From a virus (taxonomy: Duplodnaviria; Caudoviricetes), in IMG/VR virus record IMGVR_UViG_3300020593_000066, positions 1-25,307 of that record: a DNA stretch of 25,307 nt; one strand, 5' to 3'. A program made the position numbers and the translations under genes. Position 1 is the first letter of the stretch; each line of letters begins with the position of its first letter. The notes below the pieces were generated by a model that saw nothing but the letters and a program-made list of their open reading frames with translations, was not told the DNA's origin and ran no database searches. This document shows positions 4,628 through 23,838 of this stretch, in pieces.

Positions 4628-4633
4628 CGTGAA

Positions 4634-5374
4634 CTATGCCTCAACAAAAACGCGGCGCGGCGCCCAGATCCAGCCTTCCGATGCCGGGGTGTCATCGGTC
4701 GGGGGTTCAAGGCGCTCGCGGTTCAAATGGAAGTCTCGGGCGATGCGGGCGCAGGCCTCGGCATCATGGATGTCTGCTTCGCGGCCGGTCTTCGGGATCG
4801 GTTCAGTTCCAACCTGCGGCCCGAGGCGGGCGCGGCAGAGCGACGGATAGGTTTCGATCACGGTCAGATGCGCGCCATCTGTCCAGATGCCGGTAGACAG
4901 GCGTTGTGGGGCAAAGCGGGCGACCACGTGCATCGCCTTCGTCGCCTGGCTGCCGATCATGTCCTTGATCGCCGACAGCGGCGTCACCCCTTCGGCCACC
5001 AGCCGCCGCTCTGTGTGCCGGAAAAGATAGGGGTTCGCTGCCGACCGACCGATCTGATCGACCGGGGTGCCATCCGCGATCATGCGGGCGAAGGCCTCGG
5101 GGAAACCGAGTGGCGCGTCGATGGCGAGCGTGGCACGCCAGGACTGGTCGGGCTTGTCCAGCTTGCAGAGCGCGAGCAGCGCGGCGAGGAAGTCTGCGGG
5201 CGTGGTTGCGCTGTTGATCGTCTCGCGCAGATTGCCGCGCCAGGGCTGGCAGAGGGTCTGACCCGCGTGATCCAGCACGACCAGCGCGTCGCGGCTGTTC
5301 GGATTCTTGTCGCAGTTCCAGCCGCCGACATCCCAGCCGATGAACAGACGCTCGTGATGGTCGTTACTCACCAT
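4634..5374 (-). CDS. DUF429-like predicted nuclease (RNase H-like fold)
   Basis: 246 aa with FIGWDVGGW, AIDAPLGFP, FRHTER, IETYP and a C-terminal EGWIW, the pattern I recognise for DUF429. A GAGG RBS lies upstream. Confidence 0.78.
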   Translation of the reverse strand: MVSNDHHERLFIGWDVGGWNCDKNPNSRDALVVLDHAGQTLCQPWRGNLRETINSATTPADFLAALLALCKLDKPDQSWRATLAIDAPLGFPEAFARMIADGTPVDQIGRSAANPYLFRHTERRLVAEGVTPLSAIKDMIGSQATKAMHVVARFAPQRLSTGIWTDGAHLTVIETYPSLCRARLGPQVGTEPIPKTGREADIHDAEACARIARDFHLNRERLEPPTDDTPASEGWIWAPRRVFVEA

Positions 5375-5382
5375 TCAGCGCC

Positions 5383-5796
5383 TCACGAATTCATCAAGTC
5401 GACCGCGGCGACGATCTTGGAGATCTGCAGCGATGCCGATGTCCTCTCAGGGCCGACTGCGAAAACGAAGTCAGCCGGATAGTCCTTCGGCAACCAGTCG
5501 AGTTCATCGTTTTCCGCCAGCTCGACGTCGATCCACCGCCCGTCGTCTGAAAGCGCCGTAACCCGCTTAATCACGACCATCTTTCCGGCCTCTGTCAGCA
5601 GCCCGAAGGTCCAATGATCGGTCATCATTCTGGATGTGTACCAGGCTGGCAGAACCTCAGCGGCCGCGCCCGCGTCGGTTAGCATGGCGATCTTCTTCCG
5701 CGTGTTCTGCCACTCCCGCCAAGAGAAGTAGGCGGCCGCCCAGCCGGAGAGACCTCCGAAGACAACCAGCGCATCGACGACCCAACCGAAGCTCAT
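5383..5796 (-). CDS. Hypothetical protein with one N-terminal hydrophobic (membrane-anchor-like) segment
   Basis: 137 aa. ATGA overlap with the hsdS stop and an 8-nt gap to the next gene. Residues ~3-26 are hydrophobic and followed by basic residues (RKK). Confidence 0.8.
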   Translation of the reverse strand: MSFGWVVDALVVFGGLSGWAAAYFSWREWQNTRKKIAMLTDAGAAAEVLPAWYTSRMMTDHWTFGLLTEAGKMVVIKRVTALSDDGRWIDVELAENDELDWLPKDYPADFVFAVGPERTSASLQISKIVAAVDLMNS

Positions 5797-7067
5797 ACCA
5801 GCCGCACCTTACCGGTCAGCAGATTCTGCATCATGCCCTGCTTGATGGTGTGGGCCTTTTCGACCTCGGCTTCCAGCGCGGCGAGTTCTGCGTCCATGTC
5901 GGAGAGGATTTCGGCAATTGCGGTTTGCTCGACAATCTCGGGAAACAAGCCTTCAATTTTTACAAGTGTGGGCGGCCGAACTTCGAAGATGGTGCTGCCC
6001 TGTGCTTTTGACAAAAGTAACGGTCTGTTCAACGAAAACCAGTATTTCATAAATTGAACATGAGCCGAGCGAGGATCAAAGACGATGCCACAAATTCCCT
6101 GCTTTGTGGCAACTGGAATTCGGGCAACTCCAACCTCGCCAATAGTTGCACCCGTCGACAGTATCAAAGTGCCTGCAGGCCAAAGCTTCGCTGAGCAGCG
6201 AGCGAGCCCGGCCTCCGAGAGTGAATTCTTCGTTGTCCAGATTTCGGGCTTTATGTCGTCGATCACCACCCAGTGAACCCCACCGCCAAAATTCTGGAGA
6301 TTCGATGTCGCTGGGGTACCTCCATCACCAATCGCGCTTATCAAGTCCCCCAGCGGCTTCACCTCCCACTCGCCCGAGAAGCCCGGCAGGCGGGTTTTGC
6401 CGGTGAGGAGCTGTTGCATGGCGGCCTGCTTAATGTCGCGCTTCTTGGCAATCAGCGCCTCCAACGCCGCAATCCGCGCATCCGCATCCGAGAGCGCGTC
6501 TGCGATGGCGTTTTGTTCAACGATCCTCCTCGGCAAGACAACGCGGAGCATCCGCTGGGCCGTGATCCCAATATAGCTTCGAGTTCCGCCACCCGACAGT
6601 AGTTTAAGGTGCTCTTGGAAAATGCTACCGTTAAAGTAGTGGAAGAGATAATCGCGACTGATCTTTTCAGGCATCCGAACGCGATAGAAGGTAACTTGAG
6701 GTGTCAGCATAATGTAGTCGAAGGGAATTTTCCCTACGATCGCTGTTTCCCCAATAGTTGCCTTGTGCGTTAAAAGAATGTCTCCACTTCGCGCAAAACC
6801 TTTCTGGAGGCTGTCAGCCTGCTTCCGCGATATGTGAGGGCACGTATCTAGGTCCAGCACCCCCTGATACACATGATTTGCCATTACAAATGGCACCCCA
6901 AAGTCCACGAAATCAGAAGACTTCGGATGTATTGCACCGTGGTTGCCATCCATAGGTTTCTCGATGACTCCTGACATAACTAAGTCATCAACCAACAATA
7001 CATCCCAATCCTCGGGGACCAGTCCGATGTCGGTCTGCTTGTAGCCCGGCCTGATCTTCTCCTGCAT
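5793..7067 (-). CDS. hsdS: Type I RM specificity subunit S
   Basis: Starts MQEKIRPGYKQTDIGLVPEDW (alternative GTG at 7073 overlaps the hsdM stop). Two TRDs, each followed by the conserved EQxAIAxxLSDxD...KQxxMQxLLTGKxRL helix. Confidence 0.95.
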   Translation of the reverse strand: MQEKIRPGYKQTDIGLVPEDWDVLLVDDLVMSGVIEKPMDGNHGAIHPKSSDFVDFGVPFVMANHVYQGVLDLDTCPHISRKQADSLQKGFARSGDILLTHKATIGETAIVGKIPFDYIMLTPQVTFYRVRMPEKISRDYLFHYFNGSIFQEHLKLLSGGGTRSYIGITAQRMLRVVLPRRIVEQNAIADALSDADARIAALEALIAKKRDIKQAAMQQLLTGKTRLPGFSGEWEVKPLGDLISAIGDGGTPATSNLQNFGGGVHWVVIDDIKPEIWTTKNSLSEAGLARCSAKLWPAGTLILSTGATIGEVGVARIPVATKQGICGIVFDPRSAHVQFMKYWFSLNRPLLLSKAQGSTIFEVRPPTLVKIEGLFPEIVEQTAIAEILSDMDAELAALEAEVEKAHTIKQGMMQNLLTGKVRLV

Positions 7068-7069
7068 CG

Positions 7070-9523
7070 TCACGCGGCGAACCCCATCCGTTTCAGATGC
7101 CCGGCGACCTTCGCGCCCAGCGCCTGCGCGCGATCCTCCAGCACCAGCAACGGCGCGGCATAGCGTTCGGTCAGCAGCTTCACCCGCCCGGCCAGCGCCT
7201 GGCTGACGCGATCGACCTCGGCCGCCACATCGCCCTGCACCCGGGCCAGCCACTTGTCCTTGACGATCAGCGCCTTCACCTGATCCTCGGTCAGCTTGGC
7301 GTAGTGCCTGACCGTGGCCTCATCCAGCGCCGCCTGCGCCTCCTTCATCGCCTTGGCCGCGGCCGCCTCGGTCTCGATCAGCCGCAGCGCCTGCTTGAGC
7401 ATGGCGATCTCCTCGGCCGCATCGCGGTCGTGACGGATGTCCTTGATCCGGTCCTTGATCGACTTCGCGGTTAGCTTGCCTTTTTCCGTCTTGGCGTCGG
7501 CCAGCAGCCCATCCTCGCCGCCCTGCTCCTCGTCCAATTCCTCTATCGCGCGGGCAGCCTCCTCGGCCTTGGCTTCCAGCGCCTCCAACGCGGCCTTTTC
7601 GGCCGCGAAGAACCGGTCCACGATCAGCGCGGGCGGGATCAGTTCGGCCTTCAGCTTGCGCCGGCCCAGCGTGATGTCGGGCGTCTCGGTGAACTTGCCC
7701 TCGGCGTTCTTGACCAGTTCGCGGATCACACGCCCGGCCTTCCAGCCATCCTGCACGAGGATATAGACATCGTCCTGCATGACCTCAGACCAGTAGGTCA
7801 TGAGGTGCTGATACACGTCATAGCCATCGATCAGCGGCACGGGCTTGAAGCGGTCCAGCAGATCCTCGGAGATCACGTGGATCAAGTCCTTCGGCTTGTC
7901 GCCGATTGCGATACCCCGCAGCCGGTCGATATGCGCCGCGCGCCAGGCGTCGAACACCGCGGTGACGGTATCGGCATAGGCGGCGAATTCGGCATGGTTC
8001 ATGATCGCGGGCTTGACCTCGGCTGCCTCGACCTTGGGCGTCAGATAGCCGGGCCGGTCACCGGGGGCGAAGATGTCGTGGCGCACGGCGGGCATGACCT
8101 GCCAAAAGCCCTCCAGTGCATCGACATCGCGCACCGGGATGCCGCCCTTCAAGTGCGCCTCGATATCCTGAAGGTCCTCCGGTTCTGAGGCGTCGATGTA
8201 GCGGGGAATGTTGAGGTTGAAGTCGTTCTTCTCGATCTCAGCCAGCGGGACCATCCGCGAGTATTTGTCGATCTGCGTCTGCTTGGTGAAGGCGTCGACG
8301 ATCTTGTGGATGTCCTGGCTGCGCAGGCGGTTCTTGTTGCCGTCTTTCACGAATCCCTTGGAGGCGTCGATCATGAAGATGCCGGTGCGGGCCTGGGCAT
8401 GCTCCTTGTCCAGCACCACGATGCAGGCAGGAATGCCAGTACCGTAGAACAGGTTGGCCGGCAGGCCGATGATCCCCTTGATGTAGCCGCGCTTGACGAT
8501 CCAGCGGCGCAGCGTGGACTCGGCGTTGCCGCGGAAGAGGACGCCGTGGGGCAGAATGACGGCGCCCTTGCCCGTCGATTTCAGAGAGGCGATCACGTGG
8601 AGAAGATAGGCGAAATCGCCGTTCTTCTCGGGCGGGCGCTCGCCTTCGACCATGAAGCGGGCGGTCAGGTTGGTCTTGCTCTCGTCGAACACGCCGGTCG
8701 ACCATGCCTTGTCCGAGAAGGGCGGATTGGCGACCACGTAGTCGAAGGTCTTCAGGCTGCCGTCAGCGTTCAGGAAGTGTGGGGATGAAAGCGTGTTTCC
8801 CTTCCAGATTTCCGCGGTCGGACAATCGTGCAGGACCATGTTCATCTTCGCGAGCGCGCGGGTGGCGACGTCCTTTTCCTGGCCATAGATCGTAAGATCA
8901 TAGGGCGCCTCGTCATGCGCCTTCAAAAGCAGTGAGCCGGAACCGCAAGTGGGATCGTAGATCGTCTGGTCGGCGCTGCGCGCGGCACCGATCCCGATCA
9001 CCTTGGCCATGATCCGCGACACCTCGGACGGGGTGTAGAACTGCCCCTTGCTCTTGCCCGACTCGGTGGCGAAATGGCGCATCAGGTATTCGTAGGCATC
9101 GCCCAGAATATCGTCGCCATCGGCGCGGTTCTTGCGAAAATCCAGCTCCGGGCGATTGAAGATCGCGACAAGGTTTGAGAGGCGATCAACCATCTCTTTG
9201 CCGGTGCCGAGCTTCTCCGGGTCGTTGAAGTCGGCAACGTCGATCACGCCCTTGAGGTCGTTCGCCTCGGCCAGGTTGGCGATGATGATGTTGATCTTCT
9301 CGCCGATGTCCTTATTGCCGCGCAGCGCGACCATGTCCGCAAAACTGCCGTCTTCGGGGATTTCGATCAGCCCATCCGGGTCCCCGGAATACTTGTCGGA
9401 GACGTACTTCACGAACAGCAATACAAGGACATAATCCTTGTATTGCGAGGCATCCATTCCGCCCCGAAGCGCATCGCAGCTCGCCCAGAGAGAGCTGTAA
9501 ATTTCCGACTTTTTGACTGCCAT
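7070..9523 (-). CDS. hsdM: Type I RM methyltransferase subunit M (m6A) with a long C-terminal helical extension
   Basis: 817 aa with LWASCDALRGGMD, GQFYTP, motif I YDPTCGSGSLL, motif IV NPPF and FNLNIPRYID. Confidence 0.97.
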   Translation of the reverse strand: MAVKKSEIYSSLWASCDALRGGMDASQYKDYVLVLLFVKYVSDKYSGDPDGLIEIPEDGSFADMVALRGNKDIGEKINIIIANLAEANDLKGVIDVADFNDPEKLGTGKEMVDRLSNLVAIFNRPELDFRKNRADGDDILGDAYEYLMRHFATESGKSKGQFYTPSEVSRIMAKVIGIGAARSADQTIYDPTCGSGSLLLKAHDEAPYDLTIYGQEKDVATRALAKMNMVLHDCPTAEIWKGNTLSSPHFLNADGSLKTFDYVVANPPFSDKAWSTGVFDESKTNLTARFMVEGERPPEKNGDFAYLLHVIASLKSTGKGAVILPHGVLFRGNAESTLRRWIVKRGYIKGIIGLPANLFYGTGIPACIVVLDKEHAQARTGIFMIDASKGFVKDGNKNRLRSQDIHKIVDAFTKQTQIDKYSRMVPLAEIEKNDFNLNIPRYIDASEPEDLQDIEAHLKGGIPVRDVDALEGFWQVMPAVRHDIFAPGDRPGYLTPKVEAAEVKPAIMNHAEFAAYADTVTAVFDAWRAAHIDRLRGIAIGDKPKDLIHVISEDLLDRFKPVPLIDGYDVYQHLMTYWSEVMQDDVYILVQDGWKAGRVIRELVKNAEGKFTETPDITLGRRKLKAELIPPALIVDRFFAAEKAALEALEAKAEEAARAIEELDEEQGGEDGLLADAKTEKGKLTAKSIKDRIKDIRHDRDAAEEIAMLKQALRLIETEAAAAKAMKEAQAALDEATVRHYAKLTEDQVKALIVKDKWLARVQGDVAAEVDRVSQALAGRVKLLTERYAAPLLVLEDRAQALGAKVAGHLKRMGFAA

Positions 9524-9535
9524 GTGGTCCTCGTT

Positions 9536-9730
9536 CTACTCTTTGGTGCGATCCGCAGCCTGTGAGGCGTTCCGACCTGCCTCTATAGTCTTCAATCGCT
9601 CGTATTCTTCAATCGCCATCACCACGACGACTTGCCGCCCATGCTTGGCCACGGCCACCGGTTCAGCTCGGGCGAGATCAATCAGCCGGCCAAAGCCGTA
9701 CTTCGCGTCTTTCGCGCTCAGGGTCTGCAT
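9536..9730 (-). CDS. Phd/YefM-family antitoxin-like DNA-binding protein (no adjacent toxin)
   Basis: 64 aa MQTLSAKDAKYGFGRLIDLARAEPVAVAKHGRQVVVVMAIEEYERL. GGAG RBS upstream; ends 12 nt before hsdM. Confidence 0.88.
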   Translation of the reverse strand: MQTLSAKDAKYGFGRLIDLARAEPVAVAKHGRQVVVVMAIEEYERLKTIEAGRNASQAADRTKE

Positions 9731-9744
9731 CTCACTCTCCGCCC

Positions 9745-9786
9745 TTGGCCTTGTGTATTTTTGGCCAATTTGGCCCAATGAAGCAA
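9745..9786 (-). promoter_or_regulatory. Putative promoter/operator of the phd-hsd operon
   Basis: TTGGCC at 9745, 9761 and 9770, including the inverted repeat GGCCAA-T-TTGGCC (9763-9775). Minus-strand TTGCTT (-35-like) and AAAAAT (-10-like) bracket the IR. Confidence 0.5.
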
Positions 9787-14515: not shown

Positions 14516-15408
14516 GCTCCTTGCGTCGTCGAGGGGTTGGGTGCGGTGGCGGCCGCGGGCAAATCGAAGTTCAGGCGAGCTGCGCCATCGGGGCGCGGAC
14601 CGCGGATCTTCGTCATGAGCCGCCCGAGATGGGCGGGCTCGATCATCGACAGCCGCCCGCTGCGGTCCTTGGCCGGCAGGCCGAAATCGTTGATGGTGGT
14701 GCAGATGAAGGCGCGGAACGCCTCGCCCTTCTCGGGGCGTAACTCGGTCAGGGTGATGACCTCGTCGACGATGCCGGGCAGTTCGATCCCGGTCTTCGAG
14801 CCCTCGATCTGCATCGAGAAGAAGGGCTTGCCGAAATCGTCCAGCTTGCGGTCCAGCAGCCCGACCAGCCAGATGTTCTTGGCGGGCGTGTGCTGCAGAT
14901 GCGTGAGCCAGCCGATCATCTCCTGGCCGAGCAACCCGTAGGTCGCGCGGAGATCCGGCTTGCCGGTGCGGTCGGATTGGGCTTGGGATTGACCCTTGCA
15001 CCACTGAAGGCAAATGCGAGAGGCGACGGAGATGCTGTCGACGAAGACGGTGTCGTATTTGTCGAGCTGGGTGGCGGGGCCGAAGGCGGCGCAAACCCGT
15101 GCGAAGTGCCCGGGCGCATAGGACTGGTCGTCCCGCATCGCCGGGTTGGCGCCGCCGATCCAGGCCGCGAGATCGCGGGCGACCTCCCAATCGCGGATGC
15201 GGATCTCGTCGCCGGGCCAGCCCTGAACGGCCAGCTCGCCCGCCTCGAGGTTCAGGAAGAGCGTGCGCTGCGGATCAAGGGTCAGCAGCTGCGTGGTCTT
15301 GCCGATGCCGGAGGTGCCCGTGAGCACCCCCTTGATGCCGCGCGCCTCGCGCAGGCGTTCGTCGGCCGTGATGATGCGGAGCGGCCCGCCGCCGAAGGGG
15401 GCGCTCAC
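14512..15408 (-). CDS. AAA_24/Sak4-like P-loop ATPase (phage single-strand annealing protein)
   Basis: 298 aa with Walker A GTSGIGKT, Walker B VFVDS and a C-terminal PAKDRSG. Confidence 0.85.
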   Translation of the reverse strand: MSAPFGGGPLRIITADERLREARGIKGVLTGTSGIGKTTQLLTLDPQRTLFLNLEAGELAVQGWPGDEIRIRDWEVARDLAAWIGGANPAMRDDQSYAPGHFARVCAAFGPATQLDKYDTVFVDSISVASRICLQWCKGQSQAQSDRTGKPDLRATYGLLGQEMIGWLTHLQHTPAKNIWLVGLLDRKLDDFGKPFFSMQIEGSKTGIELPGIVDEVITLTELRPEKGEAFRAFICTTINDFGLPAKDRSGRLSMIEPAHLGRLMTKIRGPRPDGAARLNFDLPAAATAPNPSTTQGA

Positions 15409-15698
15409 TTGCGGCCCTCCAGATCCCGCACAGCGGCCGAAATGGCGATGTCCGCACCACAGGCGCCCTGGCGGCGCGCCATCTTCAACACGTCGCCAAG
15501 CGCGCTCGTCAGCCGGTAGAGCTCGGATTGCTGCCGCGCCAGAGCGACAAGCGCGAACTCGATGTCGTCCACAGTGGCGCGCTCGATCGGCACCGCGCGG
15601 TTCGCCCTCTCAGACAGGGCCGGAACGTTGATCGTGTCGGGGATCGCCTCCATCCAGCTCGACTGGCGCAGGCGTTTCAGGGGGGAAGTCGTGAACAT
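15405..15698 (-). CDS. Hypothetical protein, first gene of the leftward early operon
   Basis: 97 aa with a GGAG RBS upstream and a GTGA overlap with the ATPase start. Confidence 0.75.
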   Translation of the reverse strand: MFTTSPLKRLRQSSWMEAIPDTINVPALSERANRAVPIERATVDDIEFALVALARQQSELYRLTSALGDVLKMARRQGACGADIAISAAVRDLEGRK

Positions 15699-15752
15699 GG
15701 TGATGCTCCGTGTTTTCGTCGGTTGGTGTCCAGGGATCGTCGGGAAGACTGC

Positions 15753-15834
15753 TGCCGGGCCTGACGCCGCCCTGGAGCTTGCGGTCGGAGTGTTTCCCCG
15801 CGTGGGGGTGTTGCATTCCTCCGAGGGCCCGGCA
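15753..15834 (-). ncRNA. Candidate structured leader/antisense RNA (three-way junction)
   Basis: 9-bp closing stem (15753-15761/15826-15834), 6-bp stem (15785-15790/15819-15824) capped by a 4-bp C/G hairpin, and a 4-bp stem (15767-15770/15781-15784) with the loop AAGCUCCAGG. Confidence 0.55.
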
Positions 15835-15870
15835 TGAAACTGGCGGGCCGGGTTATCGCCGGTCCTGTTG

Positions 15871-15901
15871 TCACCTACCGGCGAGCCTCCGAGACTGTCG
15901 G
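15871..15901 (-). promoter_or_regulatory. Putative alternative-sigma promoter, copy 1 (leftward operon)
   Basis: Minus strand reads CCGACAGTC-TCGGAGGCTC-GCCGGTAGGTGA, with the same boxes and spacing as 19069-19099. Confidence 0.65.
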
Positions 15902-16486
15902 GGCGGTGCCGAGATATGCCGCGAGATCAAGCGCCTCGGCCGCCTTCCGGATGGTGGCGAGCCGCGCGTAGACGGTGCTCCTATGGATCCCGAGGGCTTC
16001 GGCCGCTTCCGTCGGCGACATGTCGATCAGCGCCAGCGCGAGGGCGCGGCAGGTCGGGGTCAGGCCAGCAAGGAGCCGCTGGACGTCCCGGACCAGCCCG
16101 AACGCCTCGTCTGGTGCGCGTGTGACGGCGGCATGCGGCATCACGCTGTCGGGCAGCGTTTCCGCGAGCGGCAGCATCTCGTCATCACCGCGCCCCTCGG
16201 CGGGACTGTCGAAGTCGATCCAAGTCCGCTCGGCCCGCAGCCGTTCGGTCGGCGCGGCCAGCGTGGCGATGCGGTTCGCCAGAACGCGGTCGGCGAAGGT
16301 GTCGTACTGACCGCGGGAAGGATCGAACTTCCCGTCCCGGCGATAGAGGTGCAGCCGCAGGTCCTGCTTGATGTCCTCGGCGTCCATTCCGGGGACGGAG
16401 CCCGAGCGGGCCAGCCGTTCGGCGCGAATGGTGATGTTACGGGAGACGCGCGAGTGCGCGTCGCAAATGAGGTGGAAACGCTCCAT
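15875..16486 (-). CDS. ECF-like sigma-70 family factor
   Basis: 203 aa with region 2-like DAEDIKQDLRLHLY...FDPSRGQYDTFADRVLANRI and region 4-like LTPTCR...SPTEAAEALGIHRSTVYARLATIRK. Confidence 0.8.
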   Translation of the reverse strand: MERFHLICDAHSRVSRNITIRAERLARSGSVPGMDAEDIKQDLRLHLYRRDGKFDPSRGQYDTFADRVLANRIATLAAPTERLRAERTWIDFDSPAEGRGDDEMLPLAETLPDSVMPHAAVTRAPDEAFGLVRDVQRLLAGLTPTCRALALALIDMSPTEAAEALGIHRSTVYARLATIRKAAEALDLAAYLGTAPTVSEARR

Positions 16487-16580
16487 GAAGTTTCGCCTTC
16501 GTCCAGGTGGACGGGCACGCGGCCCGAGTGCCTGGCACCGGCGAAAATTCGTTGGAGGGCCTCGAAATCAGGGGGATCGG

Positions 16581-16621
16581 AAAACGAAAAACCCCACGAA
16601 ACCTTGCGGCTTCATGGGGTT
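16581..16621 (-). terminator. Intrinsic terminator between the 385-aa gene and the sigma gene
   Basis: Minus strand reads AACCCCAUGAAGCC-GCAA-GGUUUCGUGGGGUU-UUUCGUUUU. The GNRA loop and G-U pairs work only on this strand. Confidence 0.8.
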
Positions 16622-16650
16622 GGGTGGGATGGAAAAAAGTTCGGAAAGGG

Positions 16651-17808
16651 TCAGTCGTCGTCGACGAAATTTCGGTCGCGCTGGTCAGCGCGACCCTGAC
16701 GCAGCGCACTTGCATCGACAAGGAAGCGTGCCGCGTAACAATCGTCCTCGGCCGTGAACGGATCGTCGACGATCCCGAACTGCGCCCTCAGCGCGGCGGC
16801 GAGAAGCTGGCGCTGCCGATCGTAACCGCGCTCAAACTCCCCCAGGATTGCGACCACGTCGCGCGAAGGACGACGTCCCTTGATGGTGGAGATCGGAAAG
16901 GACCGAGGCAATGCCCCGCCAAGCGCGGCACAAGCAAGGAGCAGCCGCCACTGGCGGTTCGGCCTGCCGTTCCGCTCATCCCGCATGCCGATCTGGTCCG
17001 GTTCAAGGCGCGCCGGAGCCTGCCCAAGATAGCTGACGTTGAGCACGGCCTCCTCGCGAAACGCGAAGCGCAGATCGGACCAGCGGGCATTTGCAGGCAG
17101 AGTCATCACCGGACGCCGGACGACGTCACCTGCGTCCGTCAGCGCCGCGATCTCGGGCGCGAAGAGATCGACAAGTGGCATGGCAGCGACGAATCCCTTG
17201 CGCGGTGGGGGGGCGAAGTCGAGGCATTCGGCCCACGTCAGAACACGCCCTCGCCGGGCCGCAAGAAAGGCCGGAACGTCCGGGTCAATCGCGCCGAGCG
17301 ATGTCACCAGCAGGACGAATGGCAGATTGCGACGATCGAGGTCGAGGACGTCTGCCCGGCCGAGCGGCGCGCCCGGGCTTGTGAGCGCAGCGAACACCGG
17401 AAAACTCCGGCCGGCGGCAATGGCATGATCGCCGATGTGCAGAAGGACCGCCCCGCGCGAAGGCGCGGTGGGAACGACAAGGCCAAGCGCCGTGGCAATG
17501 TCGGCGAACAGCCTGCGGCGGTCGAGTTCACGGATGCGGATATCGTCGGGATTGATGTCGAGGGTTTCGCAGAGTCGCCCCGGATCGCTGCAGACGGCAC
17601 GGACCAAGCCGCCGGCATGCCGCACGACGTGGCGCGGGCAATGCTCCCCGCCGGGCCAGGGACAGTCGATACGTTCTGCGTACTTGGAGGTTTCCGGAAG
17701 GTAGCGTTCGACCAGGGTCCAGCAATCGATCAAGTCGACCTTCCAGTCGAGCGTGTCGGTCGCATGACCGGGGACGCGCTCAATCGTCCTCCAGAACGCC
17801 GACGTCAT
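16651..17808 (-). CDS. Hypothetical protein with N-terminal four-Cys motif and possible C-terminal winged-helix DNA-binding domain
   Basis: 385-388 aa (ATG at 17808 or 17817), overlapping the upstream gene end. Contains CPWPGGEHC...AVCSDPGRLC. The C-terminus QWRLLLACAA...LAAALRAQFGIVDDPF...YAARF is reminiscent of wHTH effector domains (inference). Confidence 0.75.
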   Translation of the reverse strand: MTSAFWRTIERVPGHATDTLDWKVDLIDCWTLVERYLPETSKYAERIDCPWPGGEHCPRHVVRHAGGLVRAVCSDPGRLCETLDINPDDIRIRELDRRRLFADIATALGLVVPTAPSRGAVLLHIGDHAIAAGRSFPVFAALTSPGAPLGRADVLDLDRRNLPFVLLVTSLGAIDPDVPAFLAARRGRVLTWAECLDFAPPPRKGFVAAMPLVDLFAPEIAALTDAGDVVRRPVMTLPANARWSDLRFAFREEAVLNVSYLGQAPARLEPDQIGMRDERNGRPNRQWRLLLACAALGGALPRSFPISTIKGRRPSRDVVAILGEFERGYDRQRQLLAAALRAQFGIVDDPFTAEDDCYAARFLVDASALRQGRADQRDRNFVDDD

Positions 17809-18970
17809 CGTCCTCATCTCCGACGTTGGGGCGGCAGAAGCCCTGATCCTTGAGCCAGCGGTCGATCAGATCGCTGTCGGCATCACGGTCGTAGCGTGCG
17901 AGGCTCGGCGGGAGAATGGCAACCGTCCGCTCCTTGCCGTCTCCATCGAACTTGACCTTGAAAACGGCCCGGTCGATGGAACCGCCCGCAAGGCGCCGCT
18001 CCCAATTGTCGTCCCAGGCCATGAAGAGGTCGTTCGCCTTGCGCACCTCCTTCTCCTTGGCCTTTCCGCCCCAGAAGCGTTCGATTTCGATCAGGCGCAC
18101 CTTGACGATCTCGGAGACAGTGTCGTTGTCGAGCGATTTCTCGCCCTTCTCCAGCAGCGGATCGAGGGTGAAGCGGTTCGAGCGATCGAAGTATTCCTCG
18201 TCCCCGAAGATGACCCCGCCGAACGTCCGCAGGTAGAGCTCGGTTTCGCCTTTCGTCCCTGCATTGACGGCAAGTTCGTCAGACTCGCCGTCATAGATGA
18301 CGACGTCGTGCTTCTGCGGTCGGTAGTAGGCGATTCCCGATCCGCCATCATCCTGATGTCGCCCCTCGCGCCGCATCGGTTCGCCATGCCGGACCATGAA
18401 CCATGTCTTCGTGCCGCGCGGAAAAGCGAATACCCGTGAGCCCTTGCCACGGCGCTTGCGGTCGAACCACTCGTCCATCCGCTCCTGCATGATCGCGGTC
18501 TGTTCGACGGTCGGATCCGGAGCCGGTCGCGGCTTGCCGCTGTGGCCCGCGAAGTAGATGAAACGCGAACGTGTGAATGCCACGGTCTCGGCATGCTGAC
18601 GTCGCAGCAGATCAGGTTTCTGGAGCCAGATCTGCAGGGCGATGTCCGCATCGGATGGTTCCTCACCGGCCTCGATCGTGAGGCCAGCCCGTCCTGCCGC
18701 CTCGATCAGCTCCTCGGCGGTTTCCTTGGTCGCGGTCTCGTGCACGTAGAAAAGGGCGTCGACCATTTCGGGCGGCACGTTTTCGTCGGGCTTCATCAAC
18801 ACTGCAGCAAGATCGTCGTAGGGAAAATCCTCATCCGCTTCGACCGGAAGTTCAAAACCCCGCGCCGAAAAATATTCCGCCCACGTCGCGAAGAACTTCA
18901 GAAGGTGCTTCGGCGAAATGCTCTTGAGGCGATCAGGGTTGGTGAAGCTTCTCGGGTTGAATGACGCCAT
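17780..18970 (-). CDS. Hypothetical protein (396 aa), first gene of the regulatory cassette
   Basis: Long ORF with natural protein composition, GGAG RBS and a sigma70-like promoter upstream. I recognise no catalytic motif. Confidence 0.85.
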   Translation of the reverse strand: MASFNPRSFTNPDRLKSISPKHLLKFFATWAEYFSARGFELPVEADEDFPYDDLAAVLMKPDENVPPEMVDALFYVHETATKETAEELIEAAGRAGLTIEAGEEPSDADIALQIWLQKPDLLRRQHAETVAFTRSRFIYFAGHSGKPRPAPDPTVEQTAIMQERMDEWFDRKRRGKGSRVFAFPRGTKTWFMVRHGEPMRREGRHQDDGGSGIAYYRPQKHDVVIYDGESDELAVNAGTKGETELYLRTFGGVIFGDEEYFDRSNRFTLDPLLEKGEKSLDNDTVSEIVKVRLIEIERFWGGKAKEKEVRKANDLFMAWDDNWERRLAGGSIDRAVFKVKFDGDGKERTVAILPPSLARYDRDADSDLIDRWLKDQGFCRPNVGDEDDDVGVLEDD

Positions 18971-19006
18971 GCGCGACTCGGCTCCAGGGTGAATCGGGGA
19001 AAGTTC

Positions 19007-19035
19007 AGTCTATCGGCAGAGTTGTGAACGCACAA
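19007..19035 (-). promoter_or_regulatory. Sigma70-type promoter for the 396-aa/385-aa genes
   Basis: Minus strand TTGTGC-N17-TAGACT. The palindrome TTGTG-AACG-CACAA (19022-19035) overlaps the -35. Confidence 0.65.
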
Positions 19036-19041
19036 GTCCAT

Positions 19042-19056
19042 GTTCCCGAAGTGTTC
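19042..19056. promoter_or_regulatory. Alphaproteobacterial LexA (SOS) box
   Basis: GTTC-CCGAAGT-GTTC matches the GTTC-N7-GTTC consensus and lies between the two divergent promoters. Confidence 0.7.
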
Positions 19057-19068
19057 CGAACCGCACAT

Positions 19069-19099
19069 CCGACAGTCAGAACAGTCAGCCGGTAGGTGA
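19069..19099 (+). promoter_or_regulatory. Putative alternative-sigma promoter, copy 2 (rightward operon)
   Basis: CCGACAGTC-AGAACAGTCA-GCCGGTAGGTGA. Confidence 0.65.
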
Positions 19100-19121
19100 G
19101 GAGAGCATCTGGAGCTCTCCC

Positions 19122-19202
19122 ATGACCACAATCCCCTTCGCGCGCCGCGCTGACATCCATCCATGCCCGCATGCGGCCCCGGCACATGAGGGCTGCGCAT
19201 GA
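19122..19202 (+). CDS. Possible 26-aa leader ORF
   Basis: MTTIPFARRADIHPCPHAAPAHEGCA*. GGAG lies 7 nt before the ATG, and the stop overlaps the next start (ATGA). Confidence 0.45.
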   Translation: MTTIPFARRADIHPCPHAAPAHEGCA

Positions 19203-19405
19203 TCGATCCCGATGAACGTGAACAGGCCGCGCTCCGCGCCGCCTTGAAGAACATGGCCGAACTGATGGCCGAGATCGGCTGGACCGCGCGGTTCGCCGAC
19301 CTCAGCGAGGCGCAGGCGCTCGCCCTCGCCACCGCTGCGGTCGACGGCTTCCAGGAAGCGATGATGGCCAGCGCACACCGGCCCGATCCGGAGGTGCCGT
19401 TCTGA
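19199..19405 (+). CDS. DUF6511-like small phage protein
   Basis: 68 aa MIDPDEREQAAL...MAEIGW...EVPF. Its stop overlaps the next start (TGATG). Confidence 0.75.
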   Translation: MIDPDEREQAALRAALKNMAELMAEIGWTARFADLSEAQALALATAAVDGFQEAMMASAHRPDPEVPF

Positions 19406-20151
19406 TGGACGCCGGTTTCGACTTCAACCACCGGGAAAAGCCGCCGAGTTTCGCGGATACCGTCAACACCTGCATCGACACCGCCCTTGTCATGGAACAG
19501 GCAGAACGCCCCGCCCGGGACTATCTTGGGGGCAGCCGGCTGGGCGACATCTGCCAGCGCAGGCTGCAATACGAATACCTGAAGACGCCGAAGGATCCGG
19601 ACGCCGGGTTCTCGGGCCAGTCTCTGCGCATCTTCGCGCTCGGGCACGTCCTCGAAGATCTGGCCATCGAATGGCTGCGCAAGGCGGGTTTCGACCTGCG
19701 CACGCGCAATCGCCATGGCGATCAGTTCGGCTTCTCGGTCGTCGGTGGTCGGGTCCAGGGGCACGCCGACGGCGTGGTGGTCGCTGCGCCGAACGGCATG
19801 GCGGTCCCGGCGCTCTGGGAGTGCAAGTCGGCCAACGCGAAGAACTGGCGCGAGATCGCGAAGCGCGGCGTCGCTAAAGCCAAGCCGGTCTACGCCGCCC
19901 AGATCGCGCTCTATCAAGCCTATCTCGGCCTGACCGAGACGCCCGCGCTGTTCACCGCGATCAACAAGGACACCTGCGAGATCTGGCACGAATCCGTGCC
20001 GTTCGATGCCGCACTCGCCCAGTCGGCCAGCGACAAGGCGGTGACGATACTGCGCGCCTGCGATGCCGGCGAACTGCTGCCGCGCCACACCGCCGACCCC
20101 GAACACTTCGAATGCCGGTTCTGCGCCTGGCGGGAACGGTGCTGGGCATGA
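19405..20151 (+). CDS. PD-(D/E)XK Cas4-like phage exonuclease
   Basis: 248 aa with YLGGSRLGDIC, GHADG, WECKS, QIALY and C-terminal CRFCAWRERC (1+3 Cys arrangement). Confidence 0.88.
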   Translation: MDAGFDFNHREKPPSFADTVNTCIDTALVMEQAERPARDYLGGSRLGDICQRRLQYEYLKTPKDPDAGFSGQSLRIFALGHVLEDLAIEWLRKAGFDLRTRNRHGDQFGFSVVGGRVQGHADGVVVAAPNGMAVPALWECKSANAKNWREIAKRGVAKAKPVYAAQIALYQAYLGLTETPALFTAINKDTCEIWHESVPFDAALAQSASDKAVTILRACDAGELLPRHTADPEHFECRFCAWRERCWA

Positions 20152-22505
20152 GCGTATCGTCCGATAACACCGCGCCCGACGACGTCGCGCCCGACGCGGA
20201 AATGATCGCGATCTATGCCGACGTCGTCTTCGGATACTGCGACGGCTGGGTGCCGGTCCGTGCGTTGGCCGAGAAAGGCGCCGGCGACGGCCCTCCGCAT
20301 GTCCCCTTCATCGAAGCGGACGCCACGCTCGCCGCGAAACTGGCGCTTCAGGCGACATGGGCGAGCGACGCCGGCATGGCCTTGTTCGTGGCGCCCGGTA
20401 CGGTTGTGGCTCCCGGCGACGCCCGGGCGGAAAGCATCGTGCAAACGCAGGTGGTTCTCGTCGATCTCGACCATGGCGACATTGGCGCGAAGCGCGACCA
20501 CCTCGTGCAGCATCTCGGATGCCCGACGCTTGAAGTGGCGTCCGGCGGTGTCACCGCCGAGGGCCAGCGCAAGCTGCACCTCTACTGGCGCCTGTCCGAG
20601 CCCGCCGAGGGCGATGACATCGCCACGGTCTGCCGTGCGCGGCACATGATCGCCGCCAAGGTCGGCGGCGATCCGTCCTTCCGGTCCGCCCACCAGCCGA
20701 TCCGGGTGGCCGGATCGATCCATGCCAAACAGGGCCGACGGCGGCTGGTGGAGATTCTGCACCACGGCCACCGCGACTACGATCTGGGCGAACTGCTCGA
20801 GGCGATCATCGCCATGCCGCCGCTCGAAGGCGAGGCCGGGCTCGACTTCAACATGGCGGCCCCCGAGCGCGGCAGCGTGACCGAGCTTTTCGGCCGTCAG
20901 GTCCGCGAAGGTGGCGTCGACGGTACCACGCGCTTCGACGCGCTGTCGCGGGTGATGGGTTACTGGATCCGCCGTGCTCGCGAAGGCCATGTGCCGCGCG
21001 AACAGGCCTGGGAGGAAATCGTCTCCTACAACACGGCCCGCGTTGCCCCTCCCTGGCCGGAGGATCGGCTGCGCGAGGAAGCCGAACGCCTCTGGAAACG
21101 CGACGCCGCCCGCAACGGCGAGGTCGATGACGAGGATGACGTTCGCGATGGCGGGGGCCCTGCTGGCGGGGGGCATGATGGGCCAGTGCCGGTGCGCTTC
21201 ACCGAGGATGCGCTCGCCGCAACCTTCGCAGCCCGCCATGCCGAAACTTGGCGCTACGTCGCGGGCTGGGGACAGTGGCTGACCTGGTCGGGCAAGTTGT
21301 GGCGGCGTGAGGAGACGCTGCAGGCCTTCGATCTGGCGCGGATGATCTGCCGCGAGGCGGCCGCGCGTGCCGGATCCGCAAGGCTCAAGGCCAAGCTCTC
21401 CACCGCCGCGACGGTTTCGGCCGTGGAGCGGCTCGCCCGTTCCGACCGCCGCCACGCGACCACGACCGAACCGTGGGACCGTGATCCCTGGCTGTTGAAT
21501 ACGCCGGGCGGTGTGGTCGACCTCCAGAGCGGCGCATCCCGGCCACATGATCCCGGTCTCTTCATGACCAGGATCGCCGGTGCGTCCGTCGCCGACACCT
21601 GTCCCGTCTGGCTGGGCTTTCTGGAGACCGTCACCGGCGGGGACGGCGAGCTGCAATCCTACCTGCAGCGGATGGCGGGCTATTGCCTGACCGGCGTCAC
21701 CACCGAGCATGCGCTGTTCTTTCTTTACGGCACCGGTGCCAACGGCAAATCCGTCTTCGCCAACACCCTGACCGCCATCCTCGGCGACTACGCCACCGTC
21801 GCGCCGATGGACATGTTCATGGCCACGCAGGGCGATCGCCACCCGACCGACATGGCGGGGCTGCGTGGTGCGCGGATCGTGACCTCCATCGAGACCGAAC
21901 AGGGCAGCCGCTGGGCCGAAAGCAAGCTGAAGGCGCTGACCGGGGGCGACAAGATCACCGCCCGCTTCATGCGGCAGGATTTCTTCGAGTTCATCCCGCA
22001 GTTCAAGCTGCTGATCGTCGGCAACCACAAGCCCTCCATCCGCAACGTGGACGAGGCGATGAAGCGGCGCCTGCACATGGTGCCGTTCACCGTCACCATC
22101 CCGCCCGCCCGGCGCGACAAGCACCTGGCGGACAGGCTGCTCGCCGAACGCGACGGGATCCTCGCATGGGCGCTCGAAGGCTGCATCGAATGGCAGCGGA
22201 CGGGGCTGCGCCCACCGCCCGCCGTGATGGCCGCGACCGAGGATTACTTCGAGGCAGAGGACGCCATCGGTCGCTGGATCGATGAACGCTGCTCGCTCGG
22301 ATCGCACCTGAGCGCGGCCACCACCACGATGTTTGCGGACTGGAAGGCCTGGGCCGAGGCGAACGGCGAATTCGCCGGCTCGGTCAAGCGGTTCTCGGAA
22401 GCCCTGATCGTGCGCGGGTTCGAACGCCACAACACCCGTGCGGCCAAGGGATTTCGCGGCATCGCCCTCAATGACAGCAACTCTGACCTTTTCTCGGGAG
22501 AATAG
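20148..22505 (+). CDS. Phage/plasmid primase-helicase, P4 family (AEP/RepB-like primase, D5_N, SF3 helicase)
   Basis: 785 aa from the ATG at 20148 (ATGA overlap). Motifs VDLD, KLHLYWRL, LLNTPGGVVDL, Walker A GTGANGKS, LKALTGGD and GNHKP. Confidence 0.93.
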   Translation: MSVSSDNTAPDDVAPDAEMIAIYADVVFGYCDGWVPVRALAEKGAGDGPPHVPFIEADATLAAKLALQATWASDAGMALFVAPGTVVAPGDARAESIVQTQVVLVDLDHGDIGAKRDHLVQHLGCPTLEVASGGVTAEGQRKLHLYWRLSEPAEGDDIATVCRARHMIAAKVGGDPSFRSAHQPIRVAGSIHAKQGRRRLVEILHHGHRDYDLGELLEAIIAMPPLEGEAGLDFNMAAPERGSVTELFGRQVREGGVDGTTRFDALSRVMGYWIRRAREGHVPREQAWEEIVSYNTARVAPPWPEDRLREEAERLWKRDAARNGEVDDEDDVRDGGGPAGGGHDGPVPVRFTEDALAATFAARHAETWRYVAGWGQWLTWSGKLWRREETLQAFDLARMICREAAARAGSARLKAKLSTAATVSAVERLARSDRRHATTTEPWDRDPWLLNTPGGVVDLQSGASRPHDPGLFMTRIAGASVADTCPVWLGFLETVTGGDGELQSYLQRMAGYCLTGVTTEHALFFLYGTGANGKSVFANTLTAILGDYATVAPMDMFMATQGDRHPTDMAGLRGARIVTSIETEQGSRWAESKLKALTGGDKITARFMRQDFFEFIPQFKLLIVGNHKPSIRNVDEAMKRRLHMVPFTVTIPPARRDKHLADRLLAERDGILAWALEGCIEWQRTGLRPPPAVMAATEDYFEAEDAIGRWIDERCSLGSHLSAATTTMFADWKAWAEANGEFAGSVKRFSEALIVRGFERHNTRAAKGFRGIALNDSNSDLFSGE

Positions 22506-22509
22506 GAAA

Positions 22510-23136
22510 ATGCCAATGGATTCAGATGGTGTGACGGATGTGACGGATCATACTTATATGACCGTTACGCGCGCGCATCTGCGCGCCTGTGGAGCGGATA
22601 AGGAACCATCCGTCACATCCGTCACACCCGTCACCGCCGCCCCCGGTCTTCAAGGCGTTGATGGAGTGGGCCGCTGCATCCTCGCGCTCGACCTCGGCAC
22701 ATCGACCGGCTGGGCGATCCGCGGCCATGACGGCCTGATCACCAGCGGCACCGTCTCGCTCCGCCCCGGTCGCTTTGACGGAGGTGGTATGCGCTATCTG
22801 CGTTTTGCCAACTGGCTGACCGAGATCGATCGGCTGTCCGGTCCCACGGCCGCGATCTATTTCGAGGAGGTCCGTCGTCACCTCGGCACCGATGCGGCTC
22901 ACCTCTACGGTGGCTTTCTCGCCACGGTGACATCCTGGTGCGAACGGAAGGGTGTCGCCTATCAGGGCGTGTCGGTCGGAACCATCAAACGTCACGTGAC
23001 GGCCAAGGGCAATGCCGGCAAGGAGGCGGTGCTTGCCGCCATCCGTGCGCGTGGCTTCAGCCCCGCAGACGACAACGAGGCCGATGCCATTGCCATCCTG
23101 CTGTGGGCGATCGAGACGAACGGGGGGCTGGCATGA
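22510..23136 (+). CDS. RuvC-like Holliday junction resolvase (phage type)
   Basis: ILALDLGTSTGWA, YFEEV, GTIKRHVTAKGNAGK and DDNEADAIAIL motifs. The start is uncertain (ATG at 22510 or 22516, or a later start). Confidence 0.85.
   Translation: MPMDSDGVTDVTDHTYMTVTRAHLRACGADKEPSVTSVTPVTAAPGLQGVDGVGRCILALDLGTSTGWAIRGHDGLITSGTVSLRPGRFDGGGMRYLRFANWLTEIDRLSGPTAAIYFEEVRRHLGTDAAHLYGGFLATVTSWCERKGVAYQGVSVGTIKRHVTAKGNAGKEAVLAAIRARGFSPADDNEADAIAILLWAIETNGGLA
22528..22628. repeat. Iteron-like inverted repeats, candidate replication origin
   Basis: Perfect 21-bp IR GGTGTGACGGATGTGACGGAT (22528-22548) / ATCCGTCACATCCGTCACACC (22608-22628), built from 9-bp units, immediately after the primase gene. Confidence 0.65.
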
Positions 23137-23342
23137 TAGGCATGCGGTTCACTCCGAAGGGCTACGGCGGTCAGCGCCGGGATCCCGAGCAGGTCAAGCG
23201 TGAAGGCTGGCAGGAACAGGGCATCCTCGCGGTCTCCGCCGATGACGACCGTCTCACTTGGCCCGAGCGCGAACTGGTGCGTCAGCTGGGCGAGAAGCTC
23301 TATGGTCCGCGCCCCTCGGAAAGGGAGGCACGCCATGGCTGA
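23133..23342 (+). CDS. Small hypothetical phage protein
   Basis: 69 aa MIGMRFTPKGYGGQRRDPEQVKREGW...; ATGA overlap upstream and overlap with the next gene downstream. Confidence 0.75.
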   Translation: MIGMRFTPKGYGGQRRDPEQVKREGWQEQGILAVSADDDRLTWPERELVRQLGEKLYGPRPSEREARHG

Positions 23343-23715
23343 CCGCATCTGGACCGCCGACGACGTTGCCGATCATTTCGAGGAGGCGTTCCGCACCTTG
23401 CGTAAGCTACCGCCGGTGAAGGTGCAGGGGTATTTCAACACCTGGCCCGAGATCGTGCGGACGAGGCGCGAGATTGCGTTCATGGAACCCGAGCCGATGC
23501 GGGTGTGGCCCTCGGCCGCGGCGATCACTCGGCTCGAGCAGACGTTCGACTGGGTGCTCTGGATCGAGGAGGCGGAGCGCAAGCTGGTCTGGTCGCGTGC
23601 GGCCCGCGTGCCTTGGAAGGTGATCAGCCATGAGCATGGCTGCGATCGCACTACGGCGTGGCGACGCTGGCAGCTCGCCCTCACCAAGATTGCGGCGCGG
23701 CTCAGTGCGCAGTGA
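23335..23715 (+). CDS. DUF6362-like protein, probable late-gene regulator with C-terminal HTH
   Basis: 126 aa with a GGAGG RBS. MADRIWTADDVADHFEEA...PWKVISHEHGCDRTTAWRRWQLAL. It is the last gene before the packaging region. Confidence 0.8.
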   Translation: MADRIWTADDVADHFEEAFRTLRKLPPVKVQGYFNTWPEIVRTRREIAFMEPEPMRVWPSAAAITRLEQTFDWVLWIEEAERKLVWSRAARVPWKVISHEHGCDRTTAWRRWQLALTKIAARLSAQ

Positions 23716-23722
23716 CTCCAAT

Positions 23723-23838
23723 GTGTTGCAACACTTTTCCATGCAACAAACGAGGGCAAATCAGCTATAGTTTTGACTATGCTCGGGAGAGTAGCGCGCC
23801 CGCGACGGAGACGATCCATCGCGGGCGTTGTCGTTTCC
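23723..23838 (+). promoter_or_regulatory. Putative late promoter with downstream attenuator-like hairpin
   Basis: TGCAACA at 23727 and 23742, TATAGT at 23766 (17 nt after the second GCAACA), and a GC-rich hairpin at 23796-23828 with a weak T-rich tail. Confidence 0.5.

Follow-up and report, generated by a model that had tools for sequence, protein, structure and literature searches.

What switches on the early genes of the temperate phage carried in virus record IMGVR_UViG_3300020593_000066? We analyzed positions 1 to 25,307 of this record as one 25,307-nucleotide (nt) stretch, referred to here as the window, the right two thirds of which form the early region of an alphaproteobacterial temperate phage. 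Two tandem genes, encoding proteins A (396 amino acids, aa) and B (385 aa), lie ahead of an element-encoded sigma factor, between a leftward recombination operon and a rightward replication operon (Table 1). The original prediction for this DNA was a cascade without a CI repressor, comprising LexA, a two-protein activator, a private sigma factor, antisense feedback, and a late regulator. Its LexA-type box, both promoter motif copies, and its open reading frames (ORFs) are all in place, and the cascade largely holds as a comparative model, with the RNA target corrected and the term "CI-less" narrowed. We propose that LexA controls A-B, that A-B controls the sigma factor, and that the sigma factor acts at two conserved promoters to provide early control of the phage, a reading to which we assign a probability of about 0.55. 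The genes, folds, boxes, terminator hairpin, promoter motif copies, RNA structure, and co-conservation come directly from the sequence or its comparison; the steps of the cascade we infer.

Related loci were gathered for comparison. The first 181 rows yielded 139 with complete A and B (window included), which were dereplicated to 39 (B below 75% identity), 34 of which carry the sigma gene behind B. Co-conservation counts below refer to these 34 loci unless stated otherwise, and background counts to 5000 random stretches of the same loci. The promoter motif and box patterns were drawn from the same related loci on which they were counted, which weakens them as support for the cascade, so the counts are to be read as conservation and not as independent trials. 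Two single distant proteins used as queries retrieved no further loci.

Sigma factor and motif M

The element-encoded sigma factor scores 40.3 bits against TIGR02937 (cut-off 42.9) and has an E-value (E) of 1.8e-12 against phrog_1740, with 22 bits for Sigma70_r2 (cut-off 24) and 20.7 for r4_2 (cut-off 25.7). The window contains exactly two copies of the motif CCGACA-N15-CGGTAGGTG, here called M, even when two mismatches are allowed; 0.21 are expected, and 3 of 100 shuffled sequences reach two. The left copy faces the genes for orf97, Sak4, ssb, helicase, orf67, DUF2924, and the serine recombinase. As CCGACA-N15-GGTA, the motif is found at the sigma end in 31/34 loci and divergent from A in 33/34, compared to 134/5000 random stretches.

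M also follows sigma genes that are merely ~26% identical to that of the window. In locus L187 both copies are altered together, and in L185 and L186, which encode a different sigma factor of 240 aa, TGTCCC-N16/17-GGCTTTT replaces M at the same two places. There is no M in L175 and L177, where the fetched DNA holds no sigma gene. Because M tracks sigma type, the sigma factor is probably the reader of both copies. This is the best-supported link in the cascade, and it lends comparative support to the original proposal that the sigma factor fires both CCGACA promoters.

L185 and L186 each contain what appears to be a sister circuit (L185:11574-12646 and L186:7342-8409), with a fused A-B type, an 82-aa zinc-finger gene, a structured leader, the 240-aa sigma gene, and two promoters of its own.

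The A-B pair, its boxes, and the SOS input

Neither A nor B has a match in Pfam, PHROGs, NCBIfam, or PADLOC, and profile searches of solved-structure sequences with either protein returned nothing. The model of A is confident, with a predicted local distance difference test (pLDDT) score of 86, and resembles RdgC and CENP-N/L (Foldseek to RdgC, E 1.4e-5). In VIA, residues ~130-383 of A align to RdgC with Z 10.9 and a root-mean-square deviation of 5.9 over 222 residues at 7-8% identity; A has no match to the RdgC Pfam family at E<=0.05. The A homodimer scored 0.64 against 0.00 for the best of three controls, with at least 93% of contacts agreeing between runs and pLDDT of at least 84. The mark used for dimers was reached by 20/30 solved homodimers and 1/23 single chains, and since RdgC dimers are already solved, this likeness may contribute to the score of A. 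The predicted interface uses two separate surfaces, residues 194-220 and 300-318, and A, like RdgC, is thus predicted to be a two-lobed fold that forms a dimeric ring. While the fold is common to RdgC, CENP-N, CENP-L, and A, RdgC lacks the extra N-terminal helical domain and the obligate partner of A. The A family comprises 2,159 clusters (defined at 50% identity) at E<=0.001 and 666 at 1e-30, and is present in 23/401 sampled genomes of the phylum.

The model of B is less certain (pLDDT 79, predicted template modeling score 0.50). Residues 1-225 resemble a PD-(D/E)XK restriction nuclease (Z 6.8 to Cdn1 over 1-222) and residues 245-368 an OmpR/PhoB-type winged helix (Z 5.6 to BaeR over 246-368), both middling scores. 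For the latter region there are many OmpR-family rows at Z 4-5.6 and an Atlas row for Trans_reg_C at 0.89, a family on 31% of members; Foldseek with B gave nothing under E 0.001. Four cysteines, read as zinc ligands, are conserved in 37-39 of 39 B sequences, and no nuclease-core acid or Lys is conserved among the same 39. On this conservation we rejected an active nuclease in B. The N-terminal part also does not look like a response-regulator receiver with a phosphoacceptor Asp, as it best fits nuclease folds and has no conserved Asp in its core. Two proteins, P0263 and P0284, are natural A-B fusions that match both profiles end to end (E <= 7e-59).

The B profile does not match the fused, more distant proteins encoded in L185 and L186, of which only the A-like part scores; the C-terminal likeness of these proteins to B was noted by eye. 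The distant fused A-B type is matched at 27% over 669 aa by AcaML1 gp6 (L191, JX507079.1, 3281-5536), whose gene, annotated as hypothetical, immediately precedes those for DUF2924 and the recombinase.

Two palindromic boxes precede the sigma gene. The window holds exactly two matches to the box pattern (0.35 expected; 8 of 100 shuffles reach two). Box 1 is present in 33/34 loci at -180 to -188 of the sigma start (background 148/5000) and box 2 in 34/34 at -63 to -66 (background 56/5000), with a spacing of 116-123 nt across the 34 loci. The same layout precedes the sigma gene in L182-L184, L187, L188, and L230, even though A-B is encoded kilobases from it on the opposite strand. Among eight further sigma-bearing loci with repressors of their own, five have GACATGTC palindromes ~130 nt apart and three have the GAAATTTC type. 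Exactly the five GACATGTC loci have an altered B recognition helix, V-x-R-[LM]-N in place of Q/K-x-x-L-S/A, and they form one branch of a quick B tree (support 96) without grouping in the sigma tree. More distant B types (L175, L177, L185, L186, L223, L224) show other repeats at the matching place, as judged by eye. Since box sequence and recognition helix change together, and the boxes persist where A-B is far off, the A-B pair likely binds the two palindromes, with B as their inferred reader.

The terminator-like hairpin lies between the boxes in the window, and no consensus sigma-70 promoter was found ahead of the sigma gene. In the conserved sigma leader, pairing is possible between GGCGAAA and the right half of box 2, with double changes at 2/15 pairs (10 sequences); GGCGAAA may instead be a third DNA half-site. 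A programmed deletion between box 1 and box 2 was considered and rejected, as no such joint appears in RNA-library contigs from four runs, although contigs drop rare variants. These contigs cover parts of the region; strand, level, and transcription cannot be read from them.

Several minor observations concern the boxes. A-B alleles appear to be swapped as a cassette (L046, L094, L169, and others), with A at 41-55% beside sigma at 64-96% identity. The cassette boundary is near box 1, and one RNA-run contig also diverges at window position 16674. The conserved C-terminal RNF motif of B (window 16651-16680) is encoded by box 1; because it is lost in relatives where B stops short of the box, the motif probably exists only as a side effect of the DNA site. 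Near divergent B types there are tandem repeats with a period of ~11 bp, TCCCA in L223 (before sigma) and CACAC in L224 (after B), resembling OmpR-type tandem sites. Between B and sigma, L227 carries a second S24-peptidase gene, which is partial (L227:7752-8150).

Upstream of A is a box of the alphaproteobacterial LexA type, a consensus taken from outside this work (as given in the available part of PMC8565304). By itself GTTC-N7-GTTC is weak, with two window matches against 0.82 expected and 19 of 100 shuffles reaching two. The exact box nevertheless precedes A in 21/34 loci (56/5000 random stretches), and it is credible because it is kept while its spacer sequence varies. The candidate weak promoter directly downstream of it is not reported by the consensus sigma-70 scan. 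Co-conservation of the cis-elements, which the original prediction had named as a test, is thus strong for M and the boxes and partial for the LexA box; LexA input to A gains comparative support to that extent.

Neither tblastn with the repressors of two relatives (E<=1) nor Pfam on 20 ORFs revealed a LexA/CI-like gene in the window, so a lambda-type, element-encoded, self-cleaving repressor is absent here as far as these searches go. In the clade of the window, the repressor search gave a single stray partial match, in L090 and distant from A. Relatives differ: a LexA-family repressor of their own lies immediately ahead of A in 9/13 loci of one set and 6/9 of another, and in none of those nine does the intergenic stretch ahead of it contain an exact box of the alphaproteobacterial type. 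In L175 an XRE/IrrE-type gene occupies this position. The label "CI-less" therefore applies to the window and its clade only, as far as searched, and the SOS input appears to be interchangeable. By this comparison, the stable core of the circuit is A-B, the boxes, the sigma factor, and M.

Table 1 Features of the window. Positions count from its first letter; a dot marks features without strand.
Feature	Position	Strand	Remarks
Left operon			orf97, Sak4-like, ssb-like, helicase, orf67, DUF2924, serine recombinase (Pfam/PHROGs)
orf97	15405..15698	-	First gene of left operon; phrog_36009, function unknown
Cis target of leader RNA	15730..15741	-	Complementary to RNA loop and 3' stem arm; upstream of orf97 ribosome-binding site
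Structured leader RNA, sRNA-Xcc1-like (RF02221)	15753..15834	-	Variable loop 15780-15771
Motif M, left copy	15872..15901	-	Predicted sigma promoter; overlaps sigma stop; 31/34 loci
Sigma-70/ECF (extracytoplasmic function)-like factor, 203 aa	15875..16486	-	Element-encoded; TIGR02937, phrog_1740
Conserved sigma leader	16487..16550	-	Box 2 right half can pair with GGCGAAA before ATG, enclosing a hairpin
Box 2, near-palindrome	16542..16551	.	65 nt before sigma start
Intrinsic-terminator-like hairpin and U tail	16590..16621	-	Between B and sigma; z -4.3, 0/200 shuffles
A/T tract downstream of box 1	16633..16638	.	From sequence; like tracts by eye in relatives
Box 1, palindrome CGAAATTTCG	16665..16674	.	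Overlaps last codons of B; 188 nt before sigma start
Protein B, 385 aa	16651..17808	-	Second ATG at 17808; 388 aa from first ATG
Protein A, 396 aa	17780..18970	-	N-terminal helical domain and RdgC/CENP-N fold; predicted homodimer
Candidate weak sigma-70 promoter of A-B	19007..19035	-	Hexamers 17 nt apart, by eye; directly downstream of LexA box
Alphaproteobacterial LexA box GTTC-N7-GTTC	19042..19056	.	86 nt upstream of A start
Motif M, right copy	19069..19098	+	Predicted sigma promoter; faces replication operon; 33/34 loci
Rightward leader hairpin	19100..19120	+	UGGA exposed in loop, complementary to RNA loop; z -2.8
26-codon leader ORF	19122..19202	+	Overlaps DUF6511 start (ATGA); predicted from sequence
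Right operon			DUF6511, Cas4-like nuclease, D5 primase, RuvC-like, DUF6362; then HNH and ParB-methylase at window end
Replication operon	19199..23342	+	DUF6511, Cas4-like nuclease, D5-type primase-helicase, RuvC-like, orf69 (Pfam/PHROGs)
DUF6362 protein	23335..23715	+	Predicted late regulator; PF19889, E 4e-36
TGCAACA palindrome/repeat and -10-like hexamer	23724..23771	+	After DUF6362; candidate late promoter; 21/24 loci

Activation and other readings of the A-B pair

In the cascade that we propose, host LexA would repress the A-B operon and its cleavage in the SOS response would raise A-B, with some relatives substituting a LexA-family gene of their own ahead of A. An A2B2 complex would read the boxes through the winged helix of B and switch on the sigma gene. 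The terminator would block A-B transcription from reaching sigma, so that sigma would need a separate input, and the sigma factor would then transcribe the recombination/excision and replication operons. That A-B regulates sigma, as originally proposed, is supported by the palindrome pair and the terminator, neither of which the original prediction contained; the sign of its action is less settled. Activation is favored over a repression loop because of the LexA control and the absence of a consensus promoter before sigma.

Several findings weigh against this reading. The fold scores of B are only middling (Z 5-7), and M was not found after the sigma gene in L229 or L230. A-B also occurs without a sigma gene nearby, in L175, L177, and the distant fused form of AcaML1 gp6, which indicates that the cascade is modular. 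Box and helix switched together only once in evolution, and the resolution of the sigma tree around the GACATGTC loci is poor (support 43-84). In the GACATGTC group the terminator is upstream of box 1, so the hairpin need not lie between the boxes. The exact LexA box is missing from 13/34 loci. L230 has five full box copies, and a pair of operators spaced ~120 bp, with one of them close to where the transcript probably starts, is also the layout of a repression loop, as known from lac and gal.

The last two points lead to the strongest of the alternatives, which we nevertheless consider improbable: A-B may be the missing repressor, looping the boxes around a sigma promoter and holding sigma off in the lysogen. 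Upon damage the ring would sense the lesion or the complex would be titrated, and LexA control would restore or limit A-B. Besides the box copies of L230, this would account for the fixed spacing of the operators, the A/T tract between them, and the place of box 2 near the leader start. The position of A-B directly behind an element LexA-family gene in 9/13 loci would imply basal expression in the lysogen, and GAPS4, for which a two-subunit ring is predicted, responds to DNA damage (according to the available part of PMC13748975). However, with a LexA box in front of A, the level of A-B should rise upon damage, the wrong sign for a simple repressor; there is no consensus promoter ahead of sigma; and A-B is retained in elements that already own a LexA-family repressor.

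If A-B were a processive antiterminator, loading at box 1 and taking RNA polymerase past the terminator into sigma, this would explain the strong hairpin that separates box 1 from sigma in the clade of the window; ring-shaped antiterminators such as 21Q and AlpA exist. We hold this to be a good deal less probable than the repressor, as the hairpin is upstream of box 1 in L227, L232, L233, and L234, box 2 lies downstream of it, and palindromic sites suit a DNA-bound dimer. About as doubtful, and slightly more so, is that the boxes are read by another factor, a host regulator or the sigma factor, while A-B serves replication or recombination like RdgC, which is recombination-associated by its entry title. 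The boxes do remain with sigma when A-B is elsewhere, and the co-change is one event, but different B types have different repeats at the matching place and box type tracks the B tree. That A-B is GAPS4-like anti-phage or suicide nuclease cargo outside the sigma circuit is very improbable: the ring and PD-(D/E)XK folds occur in tandem or fused as in GAPS4, and there is a weak Atlas lead to GAPS4b_N (score 0.77, a family on 23% of members), but the nuclease core is not conserved in B, PADLOC is negative for A, B, and 26 relatives except for one weak CARF row, and both the fixed early-region position and the box/helix co-change tell against cargo.

Activation of sigma by A-B thus remains our preferred reading, and the pair can be compared to GAPS4 by description (available part of PMC13748975). 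Both consist of two proteins, tandem or fused, with a predicted ring dimer bearing a helical domain and a PD-(D/E)XK partner, and both are linked to DNA damage. GAPS4a has an essential HGxD-SxK site, whereas B lacks conserved catalytic residues; at residues 125-128 B reads HIGD, in which only the Gly is conserved (39/39), and it has no SxK. As far as that text describes it, GAPS4 is also without the zinc cysteines and OmpR-type winged helix of B. In A-B the ring gene comes first and the place in the phage early region is fixed. No sequence match between the two was seen, and A and B matched nothing in PADLOC or in a Pfam release without PF26110, the Atlas lead at 0.77 aside. A bolder and decidedly tentative proposal is that A-B represents an undescribed class of switch, in which an RdgC-type ring clamps DNA and, with two arms of catalytically dead nuclease and winged helix, bridges palindromes 120 bp apart. 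It might be a disarmed relative of GAPS4-like damage-sensing defense complexes, possibly still sensing damage, and serve as master switch in a group of prophages with an A family of more than 2,000 clusters.

For each layer of the cascade there is a known parallel: LexA control as in GIL01, sigma factors of other phages, the C4/CI RNAs, and SetCD. SetR-SetCD of SXT/R391 and AcaCD of IncC place an SOS-relieved two-subunit activator upstream of excision genes; these activators are FlhDC-like, have no private sigma factor, and belong to conjugative elements, and no homology to A-B was seen. Tectivirus GIL01, like the phage here, has CI-independent lysogeny under host LexA, but there LexA and gp7 repress the lytic promoters directly, whereas here LexA precedes a two-protein regulator and a phage sigma factor (available part of PMC13492144). 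Searches that reached few subscription papers found no published description of an A-B regulator, its boxes, or this circuit.

The design is likely common to a large unstudied prophage group. Records of Paracoccus, Tabrizicola, Daeguia, and Pseudochelatococcus hold near-identical copies of the element, and in two close relatives terminase, portal, and capsid genes follow the early region (the window itself stops before the head genes). Neither A nor the sigma factor of the window had a match among 50,697 phage records, and tblastn of A against phages and plasmids found none. The DUF2924 and serine recombinase module ties the group to the Acidithiobacillus phage AcaML1 and Wolbachia phage WO, which share it, and the switch of such prophages is now open to reporter testing. 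The A family now has a predicted fold, a partner, a putative cognate DNA site, and an apparent natural specificity swap, and the regulator-box and sigma-promoter pairs may offer an orthogonal set for Alphaproteobacteria.

Leader RNA, late step, and neighboring genes

The transcript from the left M copy would begin with a structured leader RNA that aligns full-length to sRNA-Xcc1 (RF02221) at 30.7 bits and E 0.056, below the gathering threshold of 53; six other loci likewise gave no match at threshold. It has the multi-stem shape and conserved internal-loop motif of this family, with its AAU-CAA-ACCC...GGGAA core. Across 33 sequences, 96.1% of cells are paired and 8/22 pairs show double changes, compared to at most 54.7% paired in slid controls. 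A Xylella genome has a copy of sRNA-Xcc1 beside C4 and isrK RNAs (available part of PMC12189769). For sRNA-Xcc1, a co-varying target in its own leader is not mentioned in the material available.

The original prediction had this RNA pairing with the ribosome-binding sites (RBSs) of the activator, sigma, and replication genes. In the window, 9 nt of its loop can base-pair with the A ribosome-binding region (18989-18981); direct reading also gives 8 complementary nt in the rightward leader hairpin loop and ~6 nt in the sigma leader. Duplexes were compared to shuffles in 72 loci, near-copies included, and a locus was counted when below z -1.65. The site downstream in its own leader was counted in 53/72 loci, the rightward leader in 51/71, the A RBS in 35/72, and the sigma RBS in 7/72. 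Controls gave 26/57 for ssb, 12/71 for orf97, 2/55 for helicase, 1/69 for DUF6511, 0/38 for DUF6362, 1/20 for parB129, 0/13 for ruvC, and 0/3 for HNH. In 11 loci with variant loops (one further row with Ns was set aside), all 11 fit their own cis target better than canonical sites, one marginally. The cognate was better at the A RBS in only 4/11 and at the rightward leader in 5/11, mostly marginally, and this lack of compensation at the trans targets counts against the wider role of the RNA. L182 and L183 have a wholly different loop with a 12-nt perfect match to their own target.

By these comparisons, the downstream site within the same leader emerges as the partner of this RNA, with the rightward leader loop a fair candidate for a second. 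Antisense action on the sigma RBS was rejected on its 7/72 loci. Pairing with the A RBS is doubtful and mostly ordinary anti-Shine-Dalgarno pairing, its 35/72 being no better than the ssb control; the A RBS in many relatives is CAGGAGC or AAGGAGC, and L081, L130, and L143 are suggestive exceptions. Acting in cis as an attenuator or in trans as an immunity RNA, it would pair with its own-leader site and perhaps also the loop of the rightward leader, and would dampen the two operons driven by sigma, much as the immunity antisense RNAs P1 C4 and P4 CI do. This would give sRNA-Xcc1-like RNAs a concrete proposed job. In most DUF6511-type relatives an ATG follows the rightward leader hairpin.

At the end of the replication operon, the DUF6362 protein, for which no literature was found, would open the late genes at the TGCAACA element. 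We compared 43 distinct DUF6362 loci, 24 of the window's type and 19 of a second type. The TGTTGCAACAC element follows the gene in 21/24 loci of the first type and 0/19 of the second, while an M-like motif (the CAGACA variant) is found in 0/24 and 17/19, respectively. That each of the two clades has a downstream element of its own fits a late regulator and lends comparative support to the role originally proposed.

Immediately past the recombinase end of the element is a restriction-modification/defense cluster. By sequence inspection, window positions 844-9523 encode a Type I system (M of 817 aa, S, R of 1021 aa, and an M48-like peptidase gene), inside which PADLOC identifies the 246-aa candidate defense gene PDC-S44 (4634-5374, E 4e-98). 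A lone Phd/YefM antitoxin gene is located at 9536-9778, and an integrase-core/IS-like fragment occupies the start of the window (3-302).

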